A DNA stretch of 60,503 nucleotides, counting the filler, from Basidiobolus ranarum (lineage: Eukaryota), in assembly GCA_040143965.1 (NCBI GenBank). It is 2 parts of 2 records of this genome, joined end to end, with 100 filler letters (N's around TTAATTAATTAA, not from the genome) between each part and the next. Parts side by side here need not be neighbours in the genome. Positions count along the whole stretch, not along the records: positions 1 to 30,353 come from JASJQH010000100.1; 1 more part is not named here. One strand, written 5' to 3'. The notes under the pieces were generated by a model, which had not been told where the DNA came from, did no database searches, and worked only from the letters and a program-made list of their open reading frames with translations. A program made the position numbers and the translations under genes. Positions 17,043 through 35,862 of the stretch are shown in pieces (position 1 is the first letter of the stretch; each line of letters starts with the position of its first letter).

Positions 17043-20000
17043 TTAGTTGGATATTGTGGATGGATCCGATGGTTCTTGCGATTCTTTGAAACTAGGTGCA
17101 GGAACCAAGACTTTCCGGGCGTGGTATATTCTATTTGCAAGGTGACTAACATTACCATCCATTTCAACCACTTTCCAAGAAAACTCGACACCATACATAA
17201 GTTTGATTGCATATACAATTTTCCTGGCATCGGACTCTTTAAGACCATCGAACTCATCTTCCGGGAGTTCAGGGAAATGAATATCATCCGTAGCCAAGCA
17301 ACGCTGAATCACTGGGAAAAGTGTATTCTGAATCTCTTGCTGAGTAGGATGCTGAGGAAGGATACCAACTGTGATATCAAACGGTTGAGTTAAGGCTAGT
17401 ACCGAGTGCTTGCCGTCATGATGATATCTAAATTCATAAGTTCCAACTTCCCAGGGCAGCTTATCAACCGTAAAGACCATTTCCCCAGTTATCGTTGCAC
17501 CAGTTGTACCGTGAGCGATGGGCTGTTCCGCCTCGTTTTCTTCATCCGTTTTCTTGAAGACATACAGATAGCGCCCCTTGGATGCTATAGAGGTAATCTT
17601 ATTTGAGCCATTTGCACCGACTTTATAAACACCGATCCAGTCCTCGTTGCTATGATTACTAGGTGCAGTCCAGGTAAGTTTGATAGGCTCTCCAAGAGGG
17701 AAGATGCATGAAGAAGTTATAGTAGAGTTTTGAATTTGAAGAGAATACTGTAAAGAATCTTTGCGTTCAAGTGCTTGTTCCGATGTCATTCTAACTTCAG
17801 CAATTTTAACTTGTGATTGAGTTATTAAGCTTCTAGTTTCCGAAATGATTTCTTGAAGCTTTGGCTTAGCTTTATCTACGATTCCAGCTGTCTCTTCAAC
17901 CACTCTCTCGGCCACTTTCTCGAAAGACTCGGTAACCCGTTCGACAATCTTCTCTGCTGCCCTAGTGTTCATTACGATCATTTGAATCTCTGGGGTCTCT
18001 TCCAATCTTTCCCGAATAGGTTTGGGGATGAATTTGGCCGTTTTTACAGATCTTGTAAGTCCAGCTTCCTTACGAATAGCATTGCCATAGAGTTTACGCA
18101 TATGAGGGGCCTCCACATATTGTAAGAACAAGAAGTTGGAGATTTGCGAGAAGAGAACCAATCCGTATATCACCATACTGTTACTCATGAGGGTAATCCC
18201 CCAAAAAGCCGCATGTCCAATCAGTTTCTCTGGGTTGTTCAAGAATCTGTAGATACCCGTATAACAAAGGGTAGCTGGATACTCATCAATGAAGAAATCC
18301 CCATAAAACCAACCGAAGTCACCCAACACCTCAAACACAGAGACCGAAGTCCAAATATGAAGGGCGATTAGAAGCAACCCAAATGTGTGACGTAGCAGTA
18401 CCGCACCATACGTCCAGTCCGCTGGTAGATTGTACATCCTGAGAGCAACGGCAAGAAACGACACAAAGGTCATGCTTAACGAAAGATTGTATATGCTAAG
18501 GAAGGAGGATTAGAAAATTGATGACATCTGCAAATTATTCCATCAATATTTACCTCTTCCAATTTTCAAAGGCGTCCTTATTGGTACCACCATATTTGAT
18601 GAAGTGTTTGGTCCAAAACTTGGCATTGCTTTGAAAATATAGCACCGCACCCAATACGTAACTATGGATCAAGCGCCAAACGAGACACTGACCTACTAGA
18701 AACCAAGTAAAGATGTGTTCACCACCATTGGCCAACAATGGTATGATAACACCGCCATAGAGAATGATCAACACTATGAACAGGTCGTTAGAGCGGAAAA
18801 GGTCGAAGTTTTTGAAGACAATCAAATCACGTCGGAAGTACGAGTTGTGAATATCTCTAGTGGCATATCGATCCAAATTAACTCCAACCGAGTGGCAAAG
18901 ATCATTGTTGCTAGATGTATCCGTATCACTCTCTACGGATGGACGATTATGACGCTTAGGCATTTGTGGAGTGCCGTATATTTTATCAATATCTAAAAAA
19001 GTCAACAAATATACGTTATGTTACGCTCATTTTGAATCTTGGTAGAAATCTATACGTACGAGGATTCTCTACAAAGTAAAGGAATGCGAATTGAGTAGCA
19101 TGGGCTAGAAGACTAACGTATAGAACGGTATAGCTAGCAGTCATTAAAGAAACTCCATAGTAACCAATATAGCCAACTGAGTACATGGGATGTGGGGCCA
19201 TTTCAAATACACCATCAAAAGTAAGCGATTGTTCAATCAGGAAAAAGAAGTCGCCCCAATCTATAAAAACAAAGGAGTCAGTATCCAGTCTACCGTGAAA
19301 TATAATCGATTCTGTACGTACACCAGGCAAAATCTTTTACGACACGGTGAGCATCAATCTTCACCCAGAGATTAAAAGCAACTAAGAAAATTCCACCAAC
19401 CCATCGTAGCAAATTGAACATAAATCCGTAACTCTCTAAACCTTGCATAAAAGAAAGCGCAAAGCACATATACGACGTGAAATCATTGACAAGGATGAGA
19501 TCTACTACTTGACGAAAGAGAAGCCATGTGTTGAACTCAATCGGGGCAGACTATCAAAGAGAAATGGTGAGTAAACAGCAACAAACTCGAAGTTATTTGA
19601 ATATAAATGCTACTGTGGGCAGGATAATATAAAAAAGTTCCTAAAGTACCTCAAAATCGTAGTCTTTTCCCATCTTGGCGGTTAATTCTTTTTTGATCCA
19701 CGTGTAATACTTTCCGCCTTTGTCTGCGTCAAATATTCCCTTTTTACGAGCCAAGGAAACTAAACCTCGCTTGTCACTTTGATACTTTAATAATAAACCC
19801 AGACCTAGGTTGTAGGCAGCACGCCAGAGTAGAAAAACGACTAGGAAAAAATATTTCCGAAACTCACTCGGGAGTACGAAGAAAAGAAATGCTTGAAAGC
19901 ATAAAACACCCAGAGTGAAGTAATCAAACGCGGACTTTTCAACAATGGGATCAAACAGGGTAGTTAACATATCAGAGGTTGCTGGAACTTTGAAGACTAG

Positions 20001-20237: not shown

Positions 20238-21008
20238 ATCCTAATCAGTAGTCTAAATAAACTGCTGTTGAAGCAATTAATTCTACCAAGAGATCGAGTG
20301 TCGACCTGCTGAAGTAAGGGTGGACTGAGATGAAAGTGAGTTGATATGGAGTTTTCAAGACGGCTTTTAGAGCATGGTGTAACCATCTGATTCAAGTCGA
20401 GTTATATCCCTTAAAGTTGCAATCATGTGAAAATTCACCTTTACAAGATAGCTAATCTTTCACTCCTCTCATAGAAAAAGAACACGATTTGTAACAACAC
20501 GAAACATTGTTTTGATTGGACAAATTGGACTTGCCAGTGCTACACAGAGGTACAAACTACGTGGGTACATTAGAGGCTGTCATAGAATCCATTTAACGTC
20601 GTGGTGTTCATCTCTGATGGGTCCATTGAATTCATTTAGGCACGTGTACCACCATATATTATTTATGCAAGATTCATATGATTTCATAAAGTAAACAAAC
20701 ATGTTAAATTATCATTCGGTAACTTTAAATAAATATAACCGAATCAGGGAAGAACAGCGACGTGTAAAATTAGCTAATACTTTGAATAAAGACGATAATT
20801 CAGGCAGTATTCTGTAATTAAATGTGCCAGTGCTGGCTTTAAAGACAGAGCTTTAACATATTAGAATTATGGATATCTGAGGTTTTTGAAGAGAACCTAT
20901 CAATGATCGCCAAGTGGCTTTACTTGGAATATAACCGATGTGGTAAGGTTGCACACATACATGATGTACTACATTTGGTTACCCTGACGTTGCTAGAAGA
21001 TACCATAC

Positions 21009-21438
21009 CTAAAGACTGATTCTCAAGTGGACTTCACCTACAGATTTTCCATGCTTGTTTTGCAAGATATACCATCTATCTACGGATCCTTGCGTGGCGA
21101 CATCTTGCAATGAAACGATGGTGGAACCCACTTTATCTGTATCCAAGCCCATCATTTCTCGGTCCAAAAGTTCGACATGTAGTTCGCTATGGCTGTTGTC
21201 AAATTTCAAGTTGAACGACTCGTTGTATATAGGGTTTGCATCATTCCTTCTAGCACTAGTTTTTTGTTTCGAGGTGTATCCATGGCCAGTATAGATCTTG
21301 AAAATCGGATCAATTTTATCGAACAGGTCGTTATTTTTCAAATTGCGCCCTTCAACTGATAACGTATAGGTAAATATAGATGAACGTTAACCAAATCTGT
21401 ACTGGAATTCACTTACTAACTGTAACTTGCACGGACAT
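21009..21438 (-). CDS. Small stand-alone C2-domain protein (paralog A); 2 exons
   Basis: MSVQVTV|IEGRNLKNNDLFDKIDP...ANPIYNESF...LHVELLDRE...DKVG...WYIL...VGEVHLRISL. Upstream TATAAAA on the minus strand near 21480-21487. Confidence 0.9.
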
Positions 21439-21716
21439 CTCGTTAGGATAGATAAAGGTGATACGGATGTGGGTGTGGGTTTTATAGGAGTATCTAAGCC
21501 ACCTCAGCTTCCCATTTCCTAAAGCAAGTCACACCTCGACCAATCTGATACTTGAACCCCTTTATTTTCTTGTGTGTATATCATTCTCTGGTAGCCTCCA
21601 TAACGGGAATCATAGCTTACGAAAAATCACTTTTAATCAATCAAGTCCACGGGAAGGTTGCAGGATGCAGGGCACACGAAATACGTGCGTATATTGATCA
21701 TAAATTACAAACACGG

Positions 21717-21724
21717 TATAAATA
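21717..21724 (+). promoter_or_regulatory. TATA box of the CHAP gene
   Basis: TATAAATA begins 46 nt upstream of the ATG at 21763. Confidence 0.55.
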
Positions 21725-21762
21725 AAGCTGAGCTCATTACTTGGATCTTACACTCAATCAGC

Positions 21763-22284
21763 ATGCTCTTTTTTCAATTTCTTGTATTCTCTTCGTTCAA
21801 CGTTTTTCTCTTGGCGTTACCTATTCGCAACCCCCGGACCAAAGAACTCACCTCTAAGAATATGGGTCGTCTAGCTGACATCCATCTCACCAAGGGCCAA
21901 GGTGATGACCGTAACAACGATGGTGATGGGGGTTATCTTGATTTCCAATTCAAGAATGGCCAGTGTACTGATTGGGCAGATGCTCGTTATTTTGAATTAA
22001 CTGGACATCACATTGATTGGTTCGGAGACGCTTCCACCTGGCCTAATAAAGCTAGAGAGGCTAATGGATGGATTGTATCTAGCGAGCCCCAGGTTCCTTC
22101 CATTATCGTGATTCCACCTGGTGCGCAGGGTACTGGGGGTCCGGGACACGTTGCTATTGTTGAGGATATCAATCCCGATCAGACTGTTTACACTAGCAAC
22201 TTCAACTACAACGGTGGCCCCTACAGAAAAACCTACACTGATTTCCATACCGGGGAGGGTGTATATTTCATATGGCATAAATAG
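21763..22284 (+). CDS. Secreted CHAP-domain (cysteine/histidine-dependent amidohydrolase/peptidase) protein, putative peptidoglycan hydrolase; intronless
   Basis: Hydrophobic N-terminus MLFFQFLVFSSFNVFLLA. CHAP motifs GQCTDWA (catalytic Cys), GDASTW, PQVPSIIV, GHVAIVE (catalytic His) and TSNFNY. Confidence 0.88.
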   Translation: MLFFQFLVFSSFNVFLLALPIRNPRTKELTSKNMGRLADIHLTKGQGDDRNNDGDGGYLDFQFKNGQCTDWADARYFELTGHHIDWFGDASTWPNKAREANGWIVSSEPQVPSIIVIPPGAQGTGGPGHVAIVEDINPDQTVYTSNFNYNGGPYRKTYTDFHTGEGVYFIWHK

Positions 22285-22317
22285 ATTTTAACTTAGACTG
22301 AATAAACAATACTTTAT

Positions 22318-22757
22318 TCAACTCATCGACTTACTCTTGGCGATGATTAGATGAACTTCACCAACTGATTTACCCACTTTATTACTAAGTACATACCATG
22401 AATCAATACAACCGCTCATTTTAAGCTCAGCTAAAGGAATGCCACAAGAGCCCACCTTTTCTGTATCCTTTATTTTACTGTCACCAAGTTCAACATGAAG
22501 CGTATCGTGACGATGGTTAAACTTGAGCTTGAAGGATTCATTCCATGTAGGGTTAGTATCATCCTTGCGAACACTGGTTTTCCCCTTACTCGTGAAGCCA
22601 CGGCCAGTATAAACCTTGATGACAGGATCGATCTTGTCAAACAGATCGTTACTCTGCAAGTTACGAGCTTCAACTAATGACATAGAGATTGAATGGGAGT
22701 TCTGGAATGAGATTTCTTTGGAGTTTACTTACCAACCGTAACTGAGATCTGTGTCAT
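22318..22757 (-). CDS. Small stand-alone C2-domain protein (paralog B); 2 exons
   Basis: MTQISVTV|VEARNLQSNDLFDKIDP...TNPTWNESF...LHVELGD...WYVL...VGEVHLII. Same phase-1 intron position as paralog A. Confidence 0.9.
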
Positions 22758-23105
22758 GACGTCCACGAAGGGTGAAGATAGATCATCTCCATTTTTATAG
22801 TAAGACTGATGCCTGGCCTCATCTATTTTCTATTTATGGGAATATAATAATAAATCAAATAATGGAAGAGTTAGTTCAATGAAACTCTGAAATTAGCTCA
22901 CTATCGGTTGATCTACGAGTATGACTGTCTCTTTTGCTTTCTTAATATTTAATTATATAACGTTAATAACTTTCCCTTCTTTTTTTGAATCTCTGGAAAT
23001 TGTTTAGGGTTACTTGGGTTTATTAGGGTGTAATTTACATCAATATATAATGCTTTGCAAAATTTTCAGTGAAAGGGGAGGGAAATGGATAATCTTTCAC
23101 AAGAA

Positions 23106-24782
23106 TTAGTTCTTACTAACAGACCAGATGGGTTGAATATCAACTGGTACGCTCTTCAACTTATCGAGAGCCTTGGCGGTATGATCCTTGATCACTCCAT
23201 AGGTATTCAAGAAAGTGGTGGCCTTGGCCTTGTCTCCCTCACCTTGAATAGTCATAATATCCTTGACAAGAGAAGCCACAGCCGCTTCAATCTTAGTGAA
23301 GTCAACACTGAATTTCTCAGTGGCAGTATCATACTTGAAACCACCCTTCTCGATGAGATAATTCAATTGGGCAGCTTGACCACGACCATGAGCCTCATTT
23401 AATCCGAAACGAATGGAACGGAAAGAGCTGGATAAGAAAGTGGTATAGAAGCTCTCCATGGTAATATTGGGGAAGAATCCCTTGCCAGAAAGATACTTGG
23501 CGGCGAAAAGACCGGTGATATCTGCCTTGGCTTCTTCTAAAGTAGAATGCAACTCTTGGAGCTTTGATCGGATGGGAACAGGGCTGCTACCAATGGTGAG
23601 ATGGGGTCCATTGGAGTGAGAAACTTCATGAAGAAGAACATGATTGAAGAATGCTTCGAATTGAACGTCTTTGAGTTGATCTTGTGCGATAACTGTATTA
23701 GCAATTGGTTTCAGAGTGCTCTCGAATTTTTGCTCCTGAACATTCTTAATAATCACCAATTTAGAACCACCCTTGGCGATGGCATCTTCATCATTGGGCA
23801 GGTTGTAAGCAGCAGTCATGGGCACTGCTACGTCACCACCATTGTACAGCTCATTAACGACAACAATAGGTGTAGCTTTGAGGTTCTTATTCTTGAAGTC
23901 ATCAGGGATAGGTAATTGAGCTTCAACATCAGGAAGAGAGTCTTCGAACTTTTGAAGAAGGCTAGAAGCTTGGAAATCACGAGCATGGATGAACATCTCA
24001 AAAGATGATTTGTAAGAGTTCAACCCATCGGTGTATGTTTCATAAGGACCCACGGTGACTTCTAATTTGCTCTCTGGGCTAATCTTCAACCAGGCTAATT
24101 CACTCTCAAGATATTCATTTGTGATGAAACTCTTTCCACGAAGGGAGAGGAATTGTTTCAGAGAGGCATCTTTCACCAAAAGGGCAGCCTCTTGCATGAG
24201 AATAGCTGCAGGGACAAGCAAATCTCTGTACTCTTTGGAGTAAGGGACAAGAGTCAACTTTCCTTGCTTGTTACGACGGACAACATGGTAGAATCCTTTA
24301 GCTTTCTTTTGGTCGGGAGCAGATAGAGTGGCGACCCAAGTCTCGAATTCTTCTTTGGTCATATCTTGAGGATAGAAATTACCGTTGGTCAAATGTTCAG
24401 GGACACCTTGAACGAAAGGTTCATTCTCGTTGATTCTGTCCCATGGGCCCTTGAAGAGATCGAATAATTGGAGTAATTCTTTGTCTTTCTTCTGGACTAA
24501 GCACTTGCGTAAGTTCTCATTTTGAGACCAAGCCTGACGAAGGTAAAGCTTATCCATGATTTGAGCAACCTTCTGAAGTTTGGTGATAGCAAGAATCTCT
24601 CTTTTGGAGAGAGCGGAAAGGTCGGCACCCAATTTCACAGGTTGGAAGCGAGCAACACGATCATGGATGCTAAGAGTACTGTTTGTAATGGCATCACAGT
24701 TGATCTTGGCCCCTTGATTATTGGGTGTGAAGGCAAGAGCAGAGGATAGAAGTAAAAGAGCGGAGAGGGCGATCTTGACCAT
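23106..24782 (-). CDS. Secreted peptidase family M49 (dipeptidyl peptidase III), HEXXH-type; intronless
   Basis: Signal-peptide-like MVKIALSALLLLSSALA. Motifs GPWDR, NFYPQDMTKEEF, VGPYETYTDGL, AYNLPNDE, zinc motif HEVSH, second motif LEEAKADITG, and RSIRFGLNEAHGRG. Confidence 0.88.
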   Translation of the reverse strand: MVKIALSALLLLSSALAFTPNNQGAKINCDAITNSTLSIHDRVARFQPVKLGADLSALSKREILAITKLQKVAQIMDKLYLRQAWSQNENLRKCLVQKKDKELLQLFDLFKGPWDRINENEPFVQGVPEHLTNGNFYPQDMTKEEFETWVATLSAPDQKKAKGFYHVVRRNKQGKLTLVPYSKEYRDLLVPAAILMQEAALLVKDASLKQFLSLRGKSFITNEYLESELAWLKISPESKLEVTVGPYETYTDGLNSYKSSFEMFIHARDFQASSLLQKFEDSLPDVEAQLPIPDDFKNKNLKATPIVVVNELYNGGDVAVPMTAAYNLPNDEDAIAKGGSKLVIIKNVQEQKFESTLKPIANTVIAQDQLKDVQFEAFFNHVLLHEVSHSNGPHLTIGSSPVPIRSKLQELHSTLEEAKADITGLFAAKYLSGKGFFPNITMESFYTTFLSSSFRSIRFGLNEAHGRGQAAQLNYLIEKGGFKYDTATEKFSVDFTKIEAAVASLVKDIMTIQGEGDKAKATTFLNTYGVIKDHTAKALDKLKSVPVDIQPIWSVSKN

Positions 24783-25925
24783 GATGTTGATGATTTGAAA
24801 GTTGTGATTAGGGTTAATCCAGTGGATGGTATATATAGAAATATTGGAAATCCATGTGAGTTCAGATACCATTTTTTACATAGATTCCCGAAACTCTTGA
24901 TCACCTGGTTTTCCAAGTTGTTCACACCATGTCGTACATGATTCTTGTTGTGTGGACGAGTAAAAAAGAGTCGTGAGAAAGATATTCTGCACCTGTCATT
25001 GTATCTACTTGATTTCTATATTTTGGGTGTGCTTCGTTATGATAAGTATCACAATCGGTACTCATCTGGAAGAGTTCACATGAGAGAATTGCGAAAAGTC
25101 TATATTAAGGCGATACTAGTAGAGATATGTGATCAGTAGGACAGCTTTGGAACGGAATATGGGACTATCATACATGTGCTGAAGAGAACCCGTCTTGCCG
25201 GATGCTCCAAATTTCTCACATTTGTCGGTCTTTCCCAGCTGGCAAAAAAAACTTCTTGCTCAACTCCCAAGCCAATTGGATCAATTAGATTGAAATAAGC
25301 TTTAAGTGTATATATATACTCACAGCTCCAATACTAATTACGCCTTTGGTATCATATATAATCTTTGTTGTCAAGTGACTCATCTATCTAGTGATATGCA
25401 CCGGATTTGATCCACGCTCTCAGGCAAAACGACTATTTCCCATTTCTGAGATTGATGGTGTCAATATTCTTATCGTGTGCTACTATAGTGATTTCGGCGA
25501 TCTATCGGCCGTAGAATGCCGACCTGAGTTTCATTTCAGCTTGATGACTAAGTTACGAAGTTCTATGGCATCATCCAATTAAGGTACCCAATTAGGGTAG
25601 CCTGGTGAGTGAGAATGTGTCATATTTGCCTGTTGAAGTAAATAGTTTATAGTGCATGTTTGAGGTTGTGCTCATTATAATGGGAAGGGGTATGTATCAG
25701 TATCCAAACTGACAGGAGGGGAATTGATTTTCGAGACTACTTCACAAATGATAAAGTAATAGAATGGTAACCAATAATTAGAAAACATCCAAAGAGAAAA
25801 ATAATAAAAATTCACATTATTCTACAACGTAAGAAAAAAAGGGGAAAGAAACAGATGCAAACACAAAAAATAATTGGTTTCTGCTCAAAAAAGTTCTGAT
25901 TCGAAAGGTTCTTGACTACATATCC

Positions 25926-28107
25926 TTACTGTGTCCCATCTCTATGTTCAAACTCTTCAGGGGATAAAAACTCGCTGGCAAAATGTGAGGGCAGCATCTG
26001 CCCTAACATACCATTGTTGAGTTCACTACTGTTGAGATGACTAGCGTGTTTAACATTTCCCATAAGGTACATGGAGTTTAAAGCAAGTGTCTCATCCAGT
26101 GAAGAAGAAAGTGAACCTGATACTCCAAGGCTAGATGGCATCATTTGTAGATCATACCTATGGTTTTGGTAAAGGTCGAGCGGGGAAGTCAACATAAGGG
26201 CTTCTGTTAATGGTATCTCCATGCCTGAGGGAGAGGTGGTGGTTGTCGAAAGTTGGGAAGTCAAATTGGTGTCATTGAAGTTGGATGAAACGATACTATT
26301 GTCAGTCGAAGTATTGTTATTTGGATTGAAGCTGTGTTTGGCGTAGCTGTTCATAGGTGATTCATTTTCGTTTTCGTTGATTGTCATCAAGCTATTATAC
26401 ATATCGGCAGAGAGTGAAGACTCCCGCGAAGACCCACTCAGATTCATCAAGTTAAGCATAGGGACGGAAACGGCTCGTCGGGTCATATAATCATCGACAG
26501 AAGCTCTTCTTGCGGCCAGTAAGCTCGAATTGTTAGCATCAAAATTGCTAGAGATAGATTTGTCAGGGAAAGATTGACGTCTTTGTGGAACCATCATTTG
26601 TGACATGTTTGAGGATGAACTCGACAGTGGCTCAATCCTGACGATCTTTTGTAGATTCATATCGGCTTGCATCAAAGTAACAATTTGTCGCTTTAGAGGC
26701 TGAGCGTGGCCTCGTATGATATGTCGAAAGAATCTGGAAGCTTGTTTTCCTTCCGTAAAATCACGACACGGTGTCCATATTGGATTACTACCGACCTTGA
26801 CTTCCATCGAGAATTCAGGAACTTGATTGATGTCGATGATGATCTGACCAAAGACTACGTCTAATGCTTTGTATTCAATACCCACCACAGAAGAAAAAGG
26901 AAACTCCATTTTGAAGCGACTACTATTGTCGGTAATTTGCCAGGACATCTTTTTGTCGTTCAGATTGAAGTAACAGAGCAAATCGTTCTTGGTGACAGCC
27001 ATGCGTCTCCAAGTACCAACTCCGAGAGTATCACATGCAAAAAGATGGGTGCCATCGGTGGGAGTTGTGTTTGGAGTAGTCGGTGCAGACATACTTCTCA
27101 TCATGGCGACTGTAAATTCATATTCCATTTAGAATACACAAGAGTTTAACATTTACAAACAAAAATTTAATCTTACCTGACTTGGCAACATTGGATTGCA
27201 TTAATAGTGAAGGAGAGCCATTAACTCCTGGGGTAGAGTTGGAATTCATGCTCATAGAGGCTGGATTATACTGGTATGAGTTTGGAGAAGCACTAGAGCT
27301 TAAGCACTGATTTCCAGTCATATCTACCATTGGTGTATACCCAGCACTACTATTGTTAGAATACATTCCACTCTGGCTAGGTCTCATATCGTTTCTGAAA
27401 GGATATACACCATTTGAAAACATTGGCATGCACGAATTGAAGTACTGCCTACTGATGGCTTCTTGCTGTAATAAATGTGACCGTTTTTGCATCAGCTTGA
27501 CTTTAGCCCTTCTGTTCTGAAACCATATTTGTATTGATCTTTCTGACATCTTGATACGTTCGGCAAGAGCTTCCCGAACTTTACTATTTGGTGAGGTATT
27601 TGTCATAAAAGCATCTTCCAAAATAGCCAGTTGCTCTGGTGACGCACGAGTGCGTTTCTTTGTAGAGTTGGACGAGGAGTTTTCCTTTCCGGATGTGTTT
27701 CCCTCATTAGTATCTTCTCTAGTTTGATCGATTGTTTCTTCAAATTCATCCTGGAAATCGGAGTGTGAGGAATGTTCTTCACTTCTTGAAGGATTTTCAC
27801 TGTCTTCAGAAGACTTAGTACCTTTTGGTGAACTCACTGATGGAGAGGCTTCAGATTTCGAATGCTTATCATCCTTGACTGAAACGGCGCCTGCGCCCAT
27901 ATTCAATATCCTGTTCCCTTCATACTCTTGAGAATAATGCGTGATAGAAGAGGAGTGTGTAAAGGGAAAGGTGGGGTTACCGAGATTCAAGAAATTTCCA
28001 GAAATTTCATTAAGATCAGGGTTTTGTGAGATGCTACCAGGTAGCATATTACGATGCTTTTTAGCTGGAGGTTCATCAGAATAATCAACTGAATAGTTTG
28101 AGAGCAT
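25926..28107 (-). CDS. Homeobox transcription factor of the HOY1/Phx1 type (homeodomain plus PH-like C-terminal domain); 2 exons
   Basis: Homeodomain KKRTRASPEQLAILE...MSERSIQIWFQNRRAKVK. Intron at about 27110-27176. Exon 2 has FACDTLGVGTWRR...DLLCYF...FKMEFPFSSV...PCRDFTEGKQAS. Confidence 0.9.
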
Positions 28108-30353
28108 TTCGCGATATTGAAAGGCAACACAAATACGAGTGGCAATGATTGAGGTATTACACGCAGATAAAGCCTCTAGCTTGATAGAAATAGTAAAAGC
28201 AGTAAAGGTGCTCAGATAGAAGTGCTCAAATAGAGGTGACCAATTACTTAAGCTACAGATATGGATAGTGCTATCTTGGCGATTTGATAAAACCAGAGAG
28301 AGATTCGTAGTTGTTTTATAGTTGTTAGATTATCCTGGCTCCTTGAAAGGAGCAAAGTCCATTGATGATTGATCCAGGGTCCATGATATGATCATCTCTG
28401 AAGCCAATCAAAAGAGATTGCAGGGAGTAGAACATACGCTGGATCATATTCATTAACGAGGAATTAATGAACAAATGGTCTTTATACAAGCCCAACTCAT
28501 GTCTTAGTAATTCCTCATAAATGCTCCAAAAACGACTAGATTACTTGTATCTAACCCCTTTCGCGCGCTTTTGTTATCATTGATGTAAGTAACCTGGATA
28601 TCTAGATTCAACGGTGAGAACGGAGAATAAATCATCCTTTATAGTACTGGTTTGTTCCAAGGGTAACTTGGATGTGACGACTGATAGACCTGACTCTATG
28701 CTTAGAACGAACTATGACAAGAAGGTCTAGAGCTTGGGACTTTTCTAAATGTGAATCGGCCGATAATAACCCCTTGTGAAATGATATATATGGTTGAAGA
28801 ACCCTTAGACATTCTTCAGGCTGTTGGCTCTTCCATTATAAATAACTATGAAGAAGGATAGATTACCTTCACGAATTTCTCTTTAGGGTGAGAATACTGG
28901 CATCCAAACCGGAAATGATTAAAATATGGCTGTACATGTATAGCTAGATGTATACGTAAATAAGGCGCAAAAGTGCTTTTAGAATGCTATGATGTTTACT
29001 TCGATAAAAGCATAAATGAATATGCAGAGTGTGTGCAGGTTGTGCATACGAAATATTGCACAACAGACTGTTTAGGATTCATACTGGACTCCGGAAAACA
29101 ACGATTGGAGTCTATACTGATCAAAGAAGCACAGGAGGTTAAACATACAAGCAATTAGATGATAACCATTCACTTCTAGAGCAACCAACTATCCCCTCTT
29201 TTTTGAATGGAGTACATGGGAGGCAGTTTGACATACACACCATTCCATCTTGTTTACACTTATCGGTTTTAGCAGCAATGCAGTGGTTTGGCCAAATACT
29301 GATATATGACATAGGATAAGGTATGAACAGTAGCTGAATATAAGAGTGAGTCAAGTCGTACATGATATATTTATAAGAATGAATCAAGCCATACATCTTC
29401 TTTGATCACGTTCGCTCGGCCAAGAGGGGTATTCATTAGCAAAAGAGGGGCCAGCACTGATGGGTTTGATATTGGAGGTATGGTTGATCAATGTGCTACT
29501 GTAATTTTGGAGTGTCATTGCTGTGAACTGAGTGAGCGGATGTTTCATAAACTACACGAGCCATATTTATCGCAATCTGCTAACCAATGAATCTAAATCC
29601 CGCTATCACACGAGAGAATATTGACACCAACTTAGAAGTTAGAAGATGCACTATTGGCCAAAACTAATTCATTTTTTTGCATGCATTTTTTCAAATAGAA
29701 ATATCTCATCATTTACTTCACATTTTAATGTGTATTTTTGAGAGTAAAGGGGGAGACAGTCACCAACAGGTGAAATCTTTATTTCAAACAAAACAAAGAA
29801 GCCATAACTACTTTTGTAGTTTCTTAATCAAAGTGTGAAGTTCTGGAGTATTGGTATGAATGTTGCAAAGTAGAAAAGTCAAGTCAGTAGAGTCTAAGAC
29901 ACTATTAAGTGGAGTAGGAGGGAGTAATAAAGGTAAAAATGGTTTGTCAACAATAGAAATAAGTGGAATGAGGCTAGGATTAACATAAAGCAAAAGGGAG
30001 TGTGTTTCTGAAGATATTGCTGCCAAAGGTCCACCAAGTATTCCTTGTAGGCAAGGGAGGGCTTCTCAGCTTGTTCTATAAAGGAAGCAAATTTCCTGAC
30101 TTCAGGATTGCCTAGCAGTATTCTCCAGCAAGAAGAAGGATCAGAGAAATGGAAACTCTCTAGGACATAATCCAAGGGTTCTGACTCTTGCAAATCCTGA
30201 TGAGCAGCCTAGTCTTCAGGTAGAGTATTCTAATACTGTATGGAAGTAATCCAACGGCTCCAAGAATGGCATGTCTGTAAGGGCACTCAGGCAGATGAGA
30301 AACTAGGGATGTGATACACCAAACTACAAATCTGTCAAGTTTGGTGAAGTCCC

Positions 30354-30453: not shown

Positions 30454-33400
30454 ATTGTTTCTTGCGTTTTTGGTTAACATCAAAGATGGAAGCAAAATTG
30501 CCCTCATTAGAATGCTCATTAAATACACCTGGGTTGTCAGGTTGTCCATTTGTATTTGGCTTCTCTGAATGTGACGACTTAACATCTCGCGAGAATTTCA
30601 AGAACACAGGGATTAATGCTGAAACCCCTTCCATCACAAGGCTTTTCAGCTGTGCATCCCTTTCAATAAACAGTGGTAAAAGATTTGGTAGAAGTTTCAT
30701 AAATTGTTCGGAGCGTAGGAGCTAGGGTCATAGGCTATCACTGTCATAAATAAACGAAACAAATCCTGGTAGGTGAATAGTTCATTCTTGCCCAAAATAG
30801 CGTGACGCATCCCGGCCCCGGCGGACATTGCCACTTTGTGAAGACCCATGATCTGAACCTCTGGTATAGTACTTGAGATTAGTTCTCCGTTGGGAGTTAA
30901 AGCAGATTGACCAATTCCCATTAAATCCGAAAGAGGAGGGTCCTCCAAGACACCAAACAGTTTAAACAGAGATTTTGCCATCAGGTCTCCTAGTTTGGAT
31001 GACTTGGTACGTGCTTTAAGAATCAAAGGGATAAGGCATCCTAGAGCTTGTAATATAAACGAGTCTTCATGAAGCGAATAAAACCTCATCCATGCATATT
31101 CTATACTTGATTGTACGGCCGGTGAATGCTGAGCTACAAAATATCCTTGAAATAGTGCCGGAACAAAGAGATGGTATCCCCGAGAAGAAGTAAACAGCCG
31201 CTTAAACGAGGCAGATACGTTGATGTATAAAACTAGGGCCTGAGTAACAAGGCCAAGGTCGTCGCCATGATATTTCAGCACACTGTTGACATCACTAAGT
31301 ATTCGTTCCAATTCCTCTCGGTCGTTAAAGTTATTGGGAAGAGCAAAAACAATAGTTTCCATGAAATGCATCCAAGCACGACACTGAAGGGCCGAGAGTA
31401 ATCTCAATTGACTGTTGGCTTTAAATGAGCTAAACGAATTAGTGGTATTCGGAACGCTTGGTCCATTTTGTGTATGGTTTAAGTCAGCCTCGCTGTTTAA
31501 CTCATCCCAATCGAATTCAAATATCCTATTCTCCCAAGGGATTGGGCTGAAGGATTGTACAACTCGATTAACGTTTATGGCTTCGCGAGGATAGCGTGAT
31601 ACGAAGTTAAACATAAAATGTATCTGGGCAATTCTCAGCATCGTCATTTGAAATGTACGCTTTGGGATTCCTGAGGGATAATTATGGGAGTCAGATGCAA
31701 GCTCCTCTACTGGTGATGTTGGAATAGACTCATCACCAGGCCAAAACTCGCTAGTCGGATTGAAGAACCATTCAATCTTGTTTTTTCGGAATTCACGTAT
31801 AGATAACTCATTACTTGACGAGATCAGCTCTGCAATTATAGGGAGAGCGTGGACAAACAAAGTGAGAGTGTGGGATCTGTTATCACGATGATGCCATTTC
31901 AGAAGTCCAGTAAGATAATTGAAAAGAATATAGGTAAAGGAAGGTGGGTGCATCTTCTGAAAAATGATCAAAGATCTAAGTTTACCAAGTAGTTCACATT
32001 GGTGACTAATCGACTGGGAACTTAAGCCTTCAAGATACTTCCGTAGAAATACACTAGGGTCATCTCTGGTAAAGTACGATATACAATCCCACATGGCCGT
32101 GTTTACTTCAACGCGCGGGTCGAATAACAGATCGATTGAATTGAATGACATGTTCTCCAGAATTGAAGAGACGACAACTGCGCGAGACTTGTGACTACCT
32201 TCCGCAATGGCTATTGAGTCAAGTTGATGGTCAAAGAACATTGTCGGTAACAGAGTTAAGGGATATATATTAATATCATCATTAGAATGACTTTCCTCTT
32301 TTTTCCACCCGAGTTCTTGAATTGTTTGAAGCTCTTTCCAAGACATATTATTAGTACTCAGTTCAGAAAGCCATGGGGAAATATTGGTGGTAAGGGTGGG
32401 TGAGCCTAAATCAGTGGAAACAAATGTAACCGTATGCCCAGCCGCCTTGAAAGGCTTTCGCCGATGCTGATCCGTGATGTAATGTTGTGAATATATGTGA
32501 CCTCTTTGATTAAAAAGGATGTACATTTTTCTGATCACATGAAGTTTGGTATGGCTATTGTGGAAGTTTTCATGAAAAATTCGACCCATGGCATCTGGTT
32601 CCTTTTCACCGCAATAGTTGAGTAAAAAAGCAATAAGCTCAAGTTTTGACTGGCGTGTATCTGTGATTCCTTGATTCCAAAGATAGTCCATCAGCGAAAG
32701 CAAATCGCTTTCCTGAAGACAGGTGTGAGTTGTTACGAGTAGCGACAAAATACTAATACTAAGATCGTATGAGGTTTTGGCTAGTCTGCTGTGTCGAAAC
32801 GATTTTCGAGGATTAGTGGTAGAATTGACTAATTTTGCGAGTACAACTGATGGGTTGTTTAATTGTGCAGCTACCGGAATATCCGCAGCGACCGGGCACC
32901 ACTCAGGAAGAGCCTTGCTTGCGTTAGGGAAAAAAGATCCACTCCCTGATACTTTTCTAGTATGAGGATTACTCTCGGTTTTATCTGAAACTGTTGCTTC
33001 ATATATCTCCTTGAACTTCGTTATGGTTAAGTCCATTTCACCATGCGTACTGAATGATATATCACTGGAATTTTTTCGGTGTGATGCAAGAGGATATAGA
33101 TCCGACTCTCGCAGCCAAATTATAACTCGTTGAAGCCAATTTGGACGCGTGGTGTGCTTACAAAACAATCTTATCTCTTTCAACAATTGACAATAGAGTA
33201 CTCTGAAAGGAATAGAGATGGCGATGTTTTGACTGGATTCCCAGGCCGCTAGGTATAGAGAAACTCTCTTCTCTATTTCAATAAGTAACTTGCGGCTTTG
33301 TCGATTTAAAAGGGGATCTGAAAGCATAAACGTTTTCGAAGCTTTCTTTAGATCTTGTAAAAACCATATGAATTCCTGAACTATAACAAGCTGTCCAAGA

Positions 33401-35862
33401 GTAACATTATCAGATACTTGAAGAGTTGGCTCTCTTAGTGCATCCAGTCTTGTGTTTTGCGATAGTCGTTGGGAGATTTCTTGATTGACGTTATTTAAGA
33501 GCAAGACAGTCATAAAGTCAACATCATGAAGGAAGACCCCTCTGCTCCGATTAGGACTTTCAACTGATCCAATAATTGGAGGCATCTTACGATCTTCTTG
33601 TACGAATTAGAACTGGCGCATACGAGAAATGGCTTGTAGAAAAGATGAGGGTATGTACGAGCCAGCTCGAGAAGAAGTGGTGATAATGCTCCTTTGGTGA
33701 TTGTACGCTGGTTGATGATTTTCTGTGAAAATTAGTGTTAATTTCCGATAAGCAAACACAAGCGTGTTATAAAGGAAGGAGGGGCTAAGAACTTACTGAA
33801 AACAATCGAGGCAGTGTTTCTTTGACAAGTTCATGTCCAATATAATCATTCAACTCGAATGCCAATTGCCAATATAGAGGCACAATTCTGCTAATCTCCA
33901 ATTGCGAAATCTATTCAACAGCTTTAGTTGCATTACAATGAAGGTATATATATATTTATCCATACCATCTTCTGAAAAGGCTTAAATATAGAGGCTTTAT
34001 GGCCACTATTCCATATACATATGAGTCGATCTTTGATACACCTTTCCATATCTGCGAACTGAATAGCATTATTTTTTGTCGCCTTTAATCCTTTATCTTC
34101 GTCATACGTGGGAGACGATGTAGTACTTCCCCGGCGATAAACCGGATGGGGTGATACAGATTCTTTGAACAGAAATCCATTGATAAACGCTTGAGCAATA
34201 TAATCCACGGTAGCTGAAGAAAGGTTTTCGTAGGATTGTGGTAGGCTCGTATTCAGTAAGATAATCATTTTATATGGAGTTGCGAGCGCTAGTTCCTGAT
34301 TGTTGATGTCTAGAGTATTTGAACTTTGAAGAACACCTGAGGCTGAAAACCAGAAGATCTGTTAAATGGAATGTTTGGTGCAAATGAGAATAGTGTGACT
34401 ATCTACCTATCCTTACTAGTCGGCTTAGTATTTGCTCATAGTACGATGTGATTTCTAATTTTGGAGTCATGAACTATGGTCCGATTCATCGTTTAGTGTT
34501 ACTTCATACAAATGAAACTTCAACTATCTTACCTCCGCCAAGAAATCCAAGGATATACTTCTAAGAGGAGCTTCTTCCAGACGCAAGCACCTCACCAAAC
34601 CATCAATTAATAAATATCTTGTGAAAACCTCACTTTCGTAAGACTTTACGTAACCCTCCTCTTTGATCGCATCTGGCTTCAGCTGAGCACCAGTAACAGT
34701 TCTTCCAGAATAAAGCCTCTTGAAAAACTCTTGTATTTTGTCTGGTATAAAGCGGTCCTGTTCTTTGTCTATTTGATTACTTACTATAATGGTGGCCGTC
34801 TTTATGGAAACCAGAAGTTTGACGCAGTTAATGATCATAATATAAATGATATTTGAAGGGATTGGATGTAACGCGGACGTGAGTATTGAATTGTAGACCT
34901 TTTCGAATAACGAGACAACACGGAACTGTAATCAAAATAGAGGATTGTCAATTCGCGTTGAAGCTATCAGGATATCAACATAATATTACTCTGAGAATAG
35001 GGTGGGGTACGATGAGCTGTTGACAGCACCAAATAATTTGGCTATAATAGTTCTATAATTCACTCAAAAATAAGTATAGTGGTTATTTATATTTAAGAGT
35101 AGAAACATACTTGTGCACCACAAGCTAAAAAATTAATTCGAATGAATTCATAAATGTCAAGCGCCTTCATGCATTCGCCAACTAAAAGGGCAGGGATGTA
35201 AATGGTAAGTATTCAAGCAAAGAATAAATAGAACTCTTGAATTACCATTTAAAGGAAACGTATAGAACGGAATGGCTAGTTCGTTCAACACATCCGAACA
35301 AAGTGGCAAGGACTCCAACTCACGATACTTGAATAGAATAAATTTGAGGTTATCTAATCTTGATTTAGTTGAAACTCCTATATTATCTATGTCATCCAAT
35401 ATGTCATGAGCCCAAGGATCTCGTTCTGGAGCATTTTGATTCCAGCTAGTAGTATGAATGTATGACTGGATCTTGGAACTTTGGCTTAATAATTTCTCTA
35501 GCTCTCGTCGAAAGTGTTGTTCAGCTGATTTATGAGGGTGTAATGAAACCTTCAACACACGGGGTGCTTCTTTTTTTGGTTTATTCGAAGTTTCTCCAGC
35601 ACAGTTTATCGACAAATCAGATTGTTGTGAATAGCTCCCCGTCTTTGCACAAGAAAAGGTGAAGGAACTCTCGATACTATCAATTTCGTTTGGTGTTAAA
35701 GTTGAAGCATTTGAAGGTAGTTTTGACGTTGTAGTATTATCAGAGTTGCTGGTTGCCGGAATAATTTCTTAAAAGTTGAAAGCATCGTTAGATGGTACAA
35801 AAAAGAATGTCAATTGAAAATATATAGACCTTCTTTGAAATCCATCCGTAAGAAGGACTCAT
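30454..35862 (-). CDS. UNC80: UNC-80-like protein (NALCN/cation channel complex accessory subunit); multi-exon, 3' end runs into the gap, apparent 1-nt frameshift near 30715-30722
   Basis: DDPSVFLRKYLEGL...LRSLI...PPSFTYILFNYLTGLL and FKRLF...GYHLFVPALF...IEYAWMRFYSLHEDSFILQ resemble conserved blocks of animal UNC-80 as I recall them (EDPxxxLRHFLEKL, HILFNYLVGL, FYxLxRKPFILQ). Upstream ORF pieces (33933-34268, 34524-34838, 35157-35615) are on the same strand with GT-AG boundaries. Start is tentative. Confidence 0.75.

Follow-up and report, generated by a model that had tools for sequence, protein, structure and literature searches.

We analysed a 60,503-nucleotide stretch of the genome of the early-diverging fungus Basidiobolus ranarum (GenBank assembly GCA_040143965.1; two joined parts, filler included; hereafter the window) and concentrated on four intact genes within positions 21009–24782, which encode a stand-alone C2-domain protein (C2a), a protein with a CHAP (peptidase C51) domain, a second C2-domain protein (C2b), and a peptidase of family M49, the dipeptidyl peptidase III (DPP III) family. 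The most useful result concerns the CHAP gene, which belongs to a predicted secreted CHAP family of the Entomophthoromycotina with apparent Ktedonobacteria-like ancestry; we found no published description of this family in the literature searched. The original prediction had cast the four genes as a module for lysing bacteria and scavenging peptides, and had itself named the lack of conserved linkage in related fungi as a result that would speak against the idea. Judged by a proxy for gene order, just the adjacency of the M49 and C2b genes is kept in Basidiobolus meristosporus, and the bacteriolytic island, as a system, currently has no support. We consider it reasonably probable that the four genes are instead independent neighbours in the B. 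ranarum chromosome that form no dedicated system, with the CHAP gene being one member of a dispersed family, the M49 gene being of vertical descent, and C2b being an ancestral neighbour of the latter.

The CHAP gene (21763..22284, + strand) is an intronless single open reading frame (ORF) of 173 residues. Its product matches the Pfam CHAP family (PF05257) with 57.0 bits against a cutoff of 26 (E 2.8e-15), and its layout consists of a hydrophobic signal-like segment (residues 1–20), a linker of low model confidence that extends to about residue 55, and the CHAP domain itself (residues ~60–173). This signal peptide, like the others in this work, was called by a hydrophobicity heuristic together with the conservation of the N-terminus in the B. 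meristosporus orthologue (here a protein of 174 residues), not by a SignalP-type prediction. The database protein identical to the window CHAP (P0001) is 140 residues long and begins at Met34, thus it has no signal peptide; in favour of the upstream ATG are the collinear 174-residue orthologue, in which Met34 is not conserved, and a TATA element located 46 nt upstream. Cys68 and His129 are invariant in 20 aligned CHAP sequences, and Cys68, His129 and Asn148 are each at least 90% conserved across 77 CHAP sequences. An AlphaFold2 model (77 sequences; mean pLDDT 80.3, with block pLDDT values of 88–98 over residues 61–173) places the domain in the papain-like alpha+beta CHAP fold. A Foldseek search with this model identified 21 PDB matches at E≤0.001 with staphylococcal and phage CHAP peptidoglycan hydrolases on top, the leaders being the S. 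aureus amidase 5T1Q, the phi812 hub CHAP, 2K3A, PcsB, LysGH15 and LysK CHAPK (probability 1.00), and an NCBIfam search returned peptidoglycan-hydrolase matches, all of them sub-threshold.

The CHAP fold also includes glutathionylspermidine (Gsp) amidase and trypanothione amidase, and family members are found in the insect pathogens Entomophthora and Massospora as well as in Basidiobolus, both of which would suit a protein acting on a fungal or host substrate, be it a Gsp-type amidase or a protease that attacks host tissue or the wall proteins of the fungus itself. We think this quite unlikely: the two amidases rank lower in the Foldseek list (E 6e-3 to 0.1), the best matches by sequence and by fold are the peptidoglycan hydrolases named above, and Gsp amidases are cytosolic whereas the CHAP family is mostly signal-peptide-bearing. 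We infer that the products of the CHAP family are most likely secreted and act on bacterial walls. The signal peptide would export the protein from the cell, the papain-like site with Cys68 and His129 would cut amide or peptide bonds of bacterial peptidoglycan, and this cutting would be a means of antagonism or of feeding in the gut, in dung and in soil.

A word-indexed search identified 19 CHAP-bearing matches at E≤0.001, 18 of these being the window protein or other Basidiobolus sequences and the remaining one a metagenome protein annotated as a 'surface antigen'. There are at least 13 named CHAP genes in B. meristosporus and at least 11 in B. ranarum (the window copy included), i.e., at least 24 in total; as these are counts of cluster representatives, the true numbers may exceed them. 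By the heuristic, an N-terminal hydrophobic signal-like segment is present in 24 of the 31 fungal members of the family. Small tandem groups occur, e.g., three genes on a 176536-nt contig and the pairs K7432_005503/005504 and K7432_005993/005995, which suggests that the family spreads by local duplication combined with dispersal. Some of the Basidiobolus paralogues (P0010, P0013, P0015, P0017 and P0018) have a cysteine-rich module of ~60 residues that follows the signal peptide and precedes the CHAP domain, with the pattern C-P-x-G-N-G-L-Y-C-G ... L-Y-x-C ... C-x-x-G-C and no Pfam match; this module may be a wall-binding domain.

An exhaustive HMMER search with the CHAP protein over 1.84 billion representative sequences gave 831 matches at E≤1e-3, of which 256 reached E≤1e-10 and 12 reached E≤1e-30. 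When ten top matches were looked up, two proved to be from B. meristosporus and two from Ktedonobacteria (Thermogemmatispora tikiterensis and Dictyobacter vulcani, these being both of the named bacterial proteins among the ten), and the remainder were metagenome or Logan records. A pattern-seeded scan of prokaryote genomes, which is biased by its seed patterns, confirmed 11 of 23 stretches, and all 11 were from Chloroflexota, mostly Ktedonobacteria, with 44–58% identity; in an even sample of Chloroflexota, 9 of 151 genomes matched the CHAP at E≤1e-15, with identities of up to 60%. Two Ktedonobacteria genomes had 10 and 9 matches to the CHAP subfamily, some of them lying in tandem as runs of three to six genes (G002:C1:6649325-6656443 and G001:C1:1401819-1404669), and from these multiple copies the subfamily is itself expanded in the likely donor lineage.

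These relationships were examined in an unrooted tree of 174 rows and 118 columns (LG+G4 with quick settings, SH-aLRT support). It took in 173 of 176 candidates, three having been dropped as below the E-value cutoff or with under ~86 query residues aligned; P0165, a protein of 2093 residues with 16 stretches, was left out as low-complexity, no single stretch of it passing Pfam. At a support of 98, the tree divides into a fungal side of 34 rows and a bacterial side of 140, the latter including all 13 named Chloroflexota rows. Within the fungal side there is a group of 28 rows (support 92) made up of 20 known Basidiobolus sequences, four more from B. ranarum and four without names, and a group of six rows consisting of three from Entomophthora muscae, one from Massospora cicadina and two long-branch rows without names. 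The window CHAP is sister to the B. meristosporus protein P0002 at 97 SH-aLRT, the two being 83% identical over 116 columns.

The CHAP gene thus shows the marks by which horizontal gene transfer (HGT) is recognized: its nearest relatives are bacterial, its distribution in eukaryotes is patchy, and it is located inside a eukaryotic chromosome. To us the fungal family looks like one old Ktedonobacteria-like acquisition in the Entomophthoromycotina that was followed by expansion in Basidiobolus. We infer the direction of transfer and the donor from the unrooted tree, by which the ancestor of the Entomophthoromycotina would most likely have taken the family from a Ktedonobacteria-like Chloroflexota bacterium. 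The two hydrolases had been described at the outset as being of bacterial-looking families; for the CHAP this stands as a statement of ancestry, given its Chloroflexota relatives and its position in the tree, and for the M49 protein, which appears vertically fungal with no recent bacterial import, it does not. We also considered contamination as a source of the CHAP gene and rejected it, since intron-bearing fungal genes lie on the contig that carries it and it does not stand out in GC content.

Basidiobolus species live in amphibian and reptile guts, in dung and in soil, amid dense bacterial communities. A CHAP family that is secreted, expanded and apparently of Chloroflexota ancestry would bring antibacterial or bacterivorous enzymes into the picture of this genus, for which bacterial gene acquisition has been stressed in connection with secondary metabolism (PMC7466969, in the portions available to us). 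A full-text literature search identified no paper in which CHAP occurs together with Basidiobolus or with Entomophthoromycotina; the supplementary tables of HGT surveys, which were outside its scope, may list the family. A term search inside the available portions of PMC7466969, PMC11291939, PMC9391592 and PMC8778642 likewise found no description of the CHAP family, and the supplements of these papers may list it.

Our reading of the four genes as independent neighbours draws on their linkage in B. meristosporus CBS 931.73, the one relative compared, where synteny was judged by a proxy, namely GenBank accession order and the size of the contig from which each protein comes. The B. meristosporus M49 protein ORY03277.1 and the C2 protein ORY03278.1 (P0141) have consecutive accessions and come from the same 196824-nt contig, which, together with the C2 tree described below, argues that the M49–C2b pair is ancestral. 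The CHAP orthologue ORY07711.1 (P0002, 73% identity over its full length) is found elsewhere, on a contig of 268249 nt, and the C2a relatives P0142 and P0144 sit on contigs other than that of the M49–C2 pair. The 13 named B. meristosporus CHAP genes are distributed over 10 distinct contig sizes, none matching those of the M49 genes (191030, 196824, 46591 and 190381 nt) or the C2 genes (196824 and 31011 nt), and of the 24 named CHAP genes of both species, the window copy alone has an M49 or C2 gene on its contig. Conserved linkage of a CHAP gene with the M49–C2 pair was thus not found by this indirect proxy in one relative, and the adjacency of the CHAP gene to the other three is most likely incidental.

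The organization of the locus could be taken to suggest otherwise. The four genes are packed in 3.8 kb, two of the products have signal-like N-termini, each ATG has a TATA element 42–55 nt upstream, C2a and CHAP are transcribed divergently across 324 bp, and the signal peptide of DPP III, an apparent Basidiobolus-lineage addition, would suit a fungus that lives in the gut and in which the enzyme had newly come to act outside the cell. All this would be in keeping with a co-regulated locus in which the CHAP protein lyses bacteria, DPP III trims the peptides, and the C2 proteins aid Ca2+-dependent secretion or membrane repair. We nevertheless find such a locus unlikely. By the proxy, B. meristosporus has not retained the CHAP linkage; none of the remaining 23 named CHAP paralogues has an M49 or C2 gene nearby; a repeat search over 20400–25300 found no shared promoter motif beyond TATA, just two-copy matches of 14–21 nt; and the C2 proteins have no signal peptide, hence they would be in another compartment than the two secreted enzymes. 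DPP III acts on peptides with free L-amino N-termini, and peptidoglycan stems carry D-residues and gamma-linked iGlu; this makes the stems poor candidate substrates for DPP III and a hand-over from CHAP to DPP III doubtful. A fuller version of the idea, in which a secreted antibacterial CHAP arsenal of a dozen or more Basidiobolus genes came from a Ktedonobacteria-type hydrolase domesticated by the Entomophthoromycotina, and one B. ranarum copy, inserted between the duplicated C2 genes and beside a newly secreted DPP III, gave rise to a lineage-specific, bacteria-induced locus for lysis and peptide harvest, likewise strikes us as improbable.

We prefer to see the four genes as independent neighbours, with a CHAP family of bacterial ancestry among them, and several points weigh against this. 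The synteny proxy is indirect, being drawn from contig sizes and accessions and not from DNA, it covers one relative, and it is blind to unannotated genes, as C2a appears to be; the B. ranarum contigs are short (6–30 kb), so that the paralogue test has less force there. The 324-bp divergent C2a–CHAP region and the TATA elements at similar distances in all four genes are also what one would see in a co-regulated locus specific to the lineage. As for the origin of the CHAP family, the tree is unrooted and was computed with quick settings from 118 columns, with names on just 13 of its 140 bacterial rows. The signal peptides of both CHAP and DPP III were called heuristically.

The M49/DPP III gene (23106..24782, − strand) is an intronless single ORF encoding a protein of 558 residues. 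The claim that the CHAP and M49 genes are both intronless and signal-peptide-bearing was borne out, in the first respect by the single ORFs, and in the second by the heuristic together with the conserved N-termini. Peptidase_M49 is the sole Pfam match of the protein (40.1 bits against a cutoff of 21, E 2e-10) and is partial, covering residues 143–387; NCBIfam gave no match for this protein, and among solved structures it matches 5ZUM (E 3.4e-133) and 6EOM (E 7.9e-125). Its zinc motifs are HEVSH and EEAKAD, the pentapeptide HEVSH being found in place of the classical hexapeptide HEXXGH. With HEXXH and EEXKAD motifs, a length of ~550 residues and no Nudix box, it belongs to the short pentapeptide DPP III subgroup, for which we used the motif definitions in the available portions of PMC9820243 and PMC5805324.

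The best 120 of 7855 M49 homologues were almost all from named fungi of the Zoopagomycota, Mucoromycota and Glomeromycotina, with identities of 46–63% outside the close Basidiobolus copies and 87% to the B. meristosporus orthologue. A recent bacterial origin of the gene was rejected given this wide fungal distribution of close homologues, and these comparisons mark the M49 protein as a fungal DPP III of the short HEXXH type that has come down by vertical descent. It begins with a signal-like segment (MVKIALSALLLLSSALA). By the heuristic, a signal-like N-terminus is present in 13 of the 120 listed homologues and absent from 107, most of which start at the conserved core. The N-terminus MVKIAL..LLLLSS is common to the window protein and its B. 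meristosporus orthologue and is absent from the other Basidiobolus paralogues (61–63% identity); the signal peptide looks like a gain in the Basidiobolus lineage after duplication. A secreted M49 protein would remove N-terminal dipeptides from extracellular or luminal oligopeptides, and a signal-peptide-bearing paralogue of the short HEXXH type would be a small addition to M49 biology.

There are further M49 copies in both species: a second B. ranarum copy (P0022, K7432_016019) is a partial protein of 419 residues, 93% identical, on a 3.5-kb contig, and B. meristosporus has two copies, on separate contigs, whose mutual identity exceeds 90%. Such copies point to homeologues, to alleles left uncollapsed, or to large duplications of recent date. 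The short HEXXH DPP III homologues (P0020–P0139), widespread in zygomycetes, go by names such as 'Nudix hydrolase 3' or 'MutT/nudix family protein', and there is no Nudix family among their precomputed Pfam domains; these names look like annotation carry-over from a plant fusion protein.

C2a (21009..21438, − strand; ATG at 21438, stop at 21009) encodes a protein of ~122 residues, and C2b (22318..22757, − strand; ATG at 22757) one of 126 residues. From a reading of ORFs and splice sites, C2a consists of exon 1 (21417–21438, 22 nt) and exon 2 (21009–21355), separated by a GT..AG intron of 61 nt (21356–21416, phase 1), and C2b of exon 1 (22733–22757) and exon 2 (22318–22673), separated by an intron of 59 nt (22674–22732, phase 1); the introns were deduced from the sequence and from comparison with orthologues. 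The spliced C2b product is 100% identical to B. ranarum KAK9767128.1 (K7432_003320; P0140), and the spliced N-terminus of C2a fits the pattern of P0142. C2a is probably unannotated, as a homologue search with C2b gave three candidates, none of which is C2a, despite the long identical words that the two share. Both proteins match Pfam C2 (PF00168; cutoff 22), C2a with 58.4 bits (E 9.5e-16) and C2b with 63.2 bits (E 3e-17), and in each a single C2 domain spans the whole protein, with no signal peptide and no other domain.

These two genes, described at the outset as paralogs, have 58–59% identity and introns of identical position and phase. Alignment between them is confined to the coding region, the TATA element and the splice junction, their promoters, introns and 3' flanks having diverged; a recent segmental C2 duplication that carried the CHAP gene along was rejected because of these diverged flanks. 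With a dN of 0.325, a dS that is saturated (so that no dN/dS can be given), and both ORFs intact, the duplication appears to be old and both copies to have been kept. In a five-sequence C2 tree, C2b groups with B. meristosporus P0141, and C2a with P0142 and P0144, each with 100/99 support; C2b would thus be an ancestral neighbour of the DPP III gene and C2a an old paralogue. The best solved match is 9BKW, followed by C2 domains of synaptotagmin, E-Syt and PKC, from which the window proteins differ in having no partner domain. The loop-1 Asp pair is kept when they are aligned with synaptotagmin-7, and at the second Asp position of the loop-3 D-x-D, C2b has Ser and C2a, as read through the C2a/C2b alignment, has Arg, although loop 3 aligns ambiguously. 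With loop 3 altered in this way, Ca2+ dependence of C2a and C2b cannot be deduced. In our favoured reading, C2a and C2b are each a single-C2 protein that binds membranes in the cytosol, and nothing that we saw ties them to the hydrolases.

One coupling that could be envisaged is between DPP III and C2b only, e.g., with C2b regulating trafficking of the peptidase, and with CHAP and C2a as bystanders. This would agree with the adjacency of the two genes being kept in B. meristosporus and with the orthology of C2b and P0141. We judge it very unlikely, however, as the two species are congeners (their M49 proteins being 87% identical) in which retained gene order is expected from descent alone, and as the second B. 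meristosporus M49 copy, on the 191030-nt contig, has no C2 match on a contig of that size. We retain the view that DPP III and C2b are neighbours by descent.

As originally described, the four compact genes occupy 3.8 kb between CHO2-like and homeobox loci, in accordance with the ORFs, the Pfam matches and the domains of the flanking genes. The Pfam matches of all four proteins exceed the curated cutoffs. On one flank is a CHO2-like gene with two PEMT domains (17046–19336, − strand), and on the other a HOY1-type homeobox gene, with a homeodomain and a HOY1 PH-like domain (25929–28329, − strand), both recognized by Pfam. The C2b and CHAP genes are convergent, the C2b stop codon ending 33 bp past that of CHAP. 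The divergent C2a–CHAP intergenic region (21439..21762, 324 bp) contains the TATA elements of both genes. The predicted placement of a TATA-like element ~40–55 nt upstream of each ATG agrees with the 42–55 nt that we measured: TATAAA starts 48 nt upstream for C2a (21481..21486, − strand), 46 nt for CHAP (21717..21722, + strand) and 42 nt for C2b (22794..22799, − strand), and the M49 element, TATATATA (24830..24837, − strand), is 53–55 nt upstream, with TATAWA starts at 55 and 53 nt. The background chance of a TATAWA start per 25-nt span is ~4% in the window. GC content is ~35–43% in the window, the four-gene stretch has no compositional break, and the CHAP gene has the GC content of its flanks. 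No extra copies of any of the four genes and no tRNA genes were found within the window.

Two further observations were made in the window. A 969-residue open frame at 30700–33606 (− strand) has a match (PF20262, E 8.6e-29) to the C-terminal part of UNC80, which in animals is a subunit of the NALCN channel complex; the host in this case is an early-diverging fungus. At 17046–18509 (− strand) there is a SKICH match (PF17751; 26.2 bits with the cutoff at 23.4, E 1.2e-05) downstream of a PEMT domain of the CHO2-like gene, which is either an unusual domain combination or a fused frame reading through an intron.

The characterized enzymes closest to the window M49 protein are bacterial, and it differs from them in its fungal host. 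In CoDPP III of the myxobacterium Corallococcus sp. EGB (5ZUM; PMC9820243, in the portions available), its closest relative of solved structure, the motifs HELMH and EEAKAD align with HEVSH and EEAKAD of the window protein, and CaDPP III of Caldithrix abyssi (6EOM; PMC5805324, likewise in part) is of the same short HEXXH subgroup. According to the same portions of PMC9820243, CoDPP III has a predicted signal peptide at residues 1–22 and turned up in the culture supernatant as one of the extracellular proteins, which provides a precedent for a secreted DPP III. Classical DPP III, in contrast, is cytosolic, of ~700 residues and has HEXXGH, whereas the window protein is of the ~550-residue class with HEXXH.

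The window CHAP shares its domain, fold and conserved Cys and His with bacterial and phage CHAP peptidoglycan hydrolases (2K3A, 5T1Q, LysK CHAPK 4CSH and PcsB 4CGK), although the Glu of S-E-M-N-Y in 2K3A aligns with an Asn in S-N-F-N-Y of the window protein, and unlike these characterized enzymes it is known here from sequence and model. Closest to it are the C-terminal-CHAP proteins of Ktedonobacteria (~290–400 residues), with 44–60% identity over the domain; the window gene differs in being located in a fungal chromosome, and in that a predicted eukaryotic-style signal peptide and a short linker replace the long N-terminal region of the bacterial proteins. The Basidiobolus CHAP family would add to the cases in which a eukaryote has taken a bacterial wall hydrolase into its own service. 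In ticks, the domesticated amidase effector Dae2 is reportedly the product of a bacterial wall amidase gene that was acquired by a eukaryote. The secreted CHAP family of Saprolegnia parasitica, as described in the available portions of PMC3681718, is likewise a bacterial-type wall hydrolase in a eukaryote that is predicted to be secreted and has been repeatedly duplicated. Compared with these two cases, that of Basidiobolus, put together from sequence data, has another recipient, the Entomophthoromycotina, and another apparent donor, a Ktedonobacteria-like bacterium.

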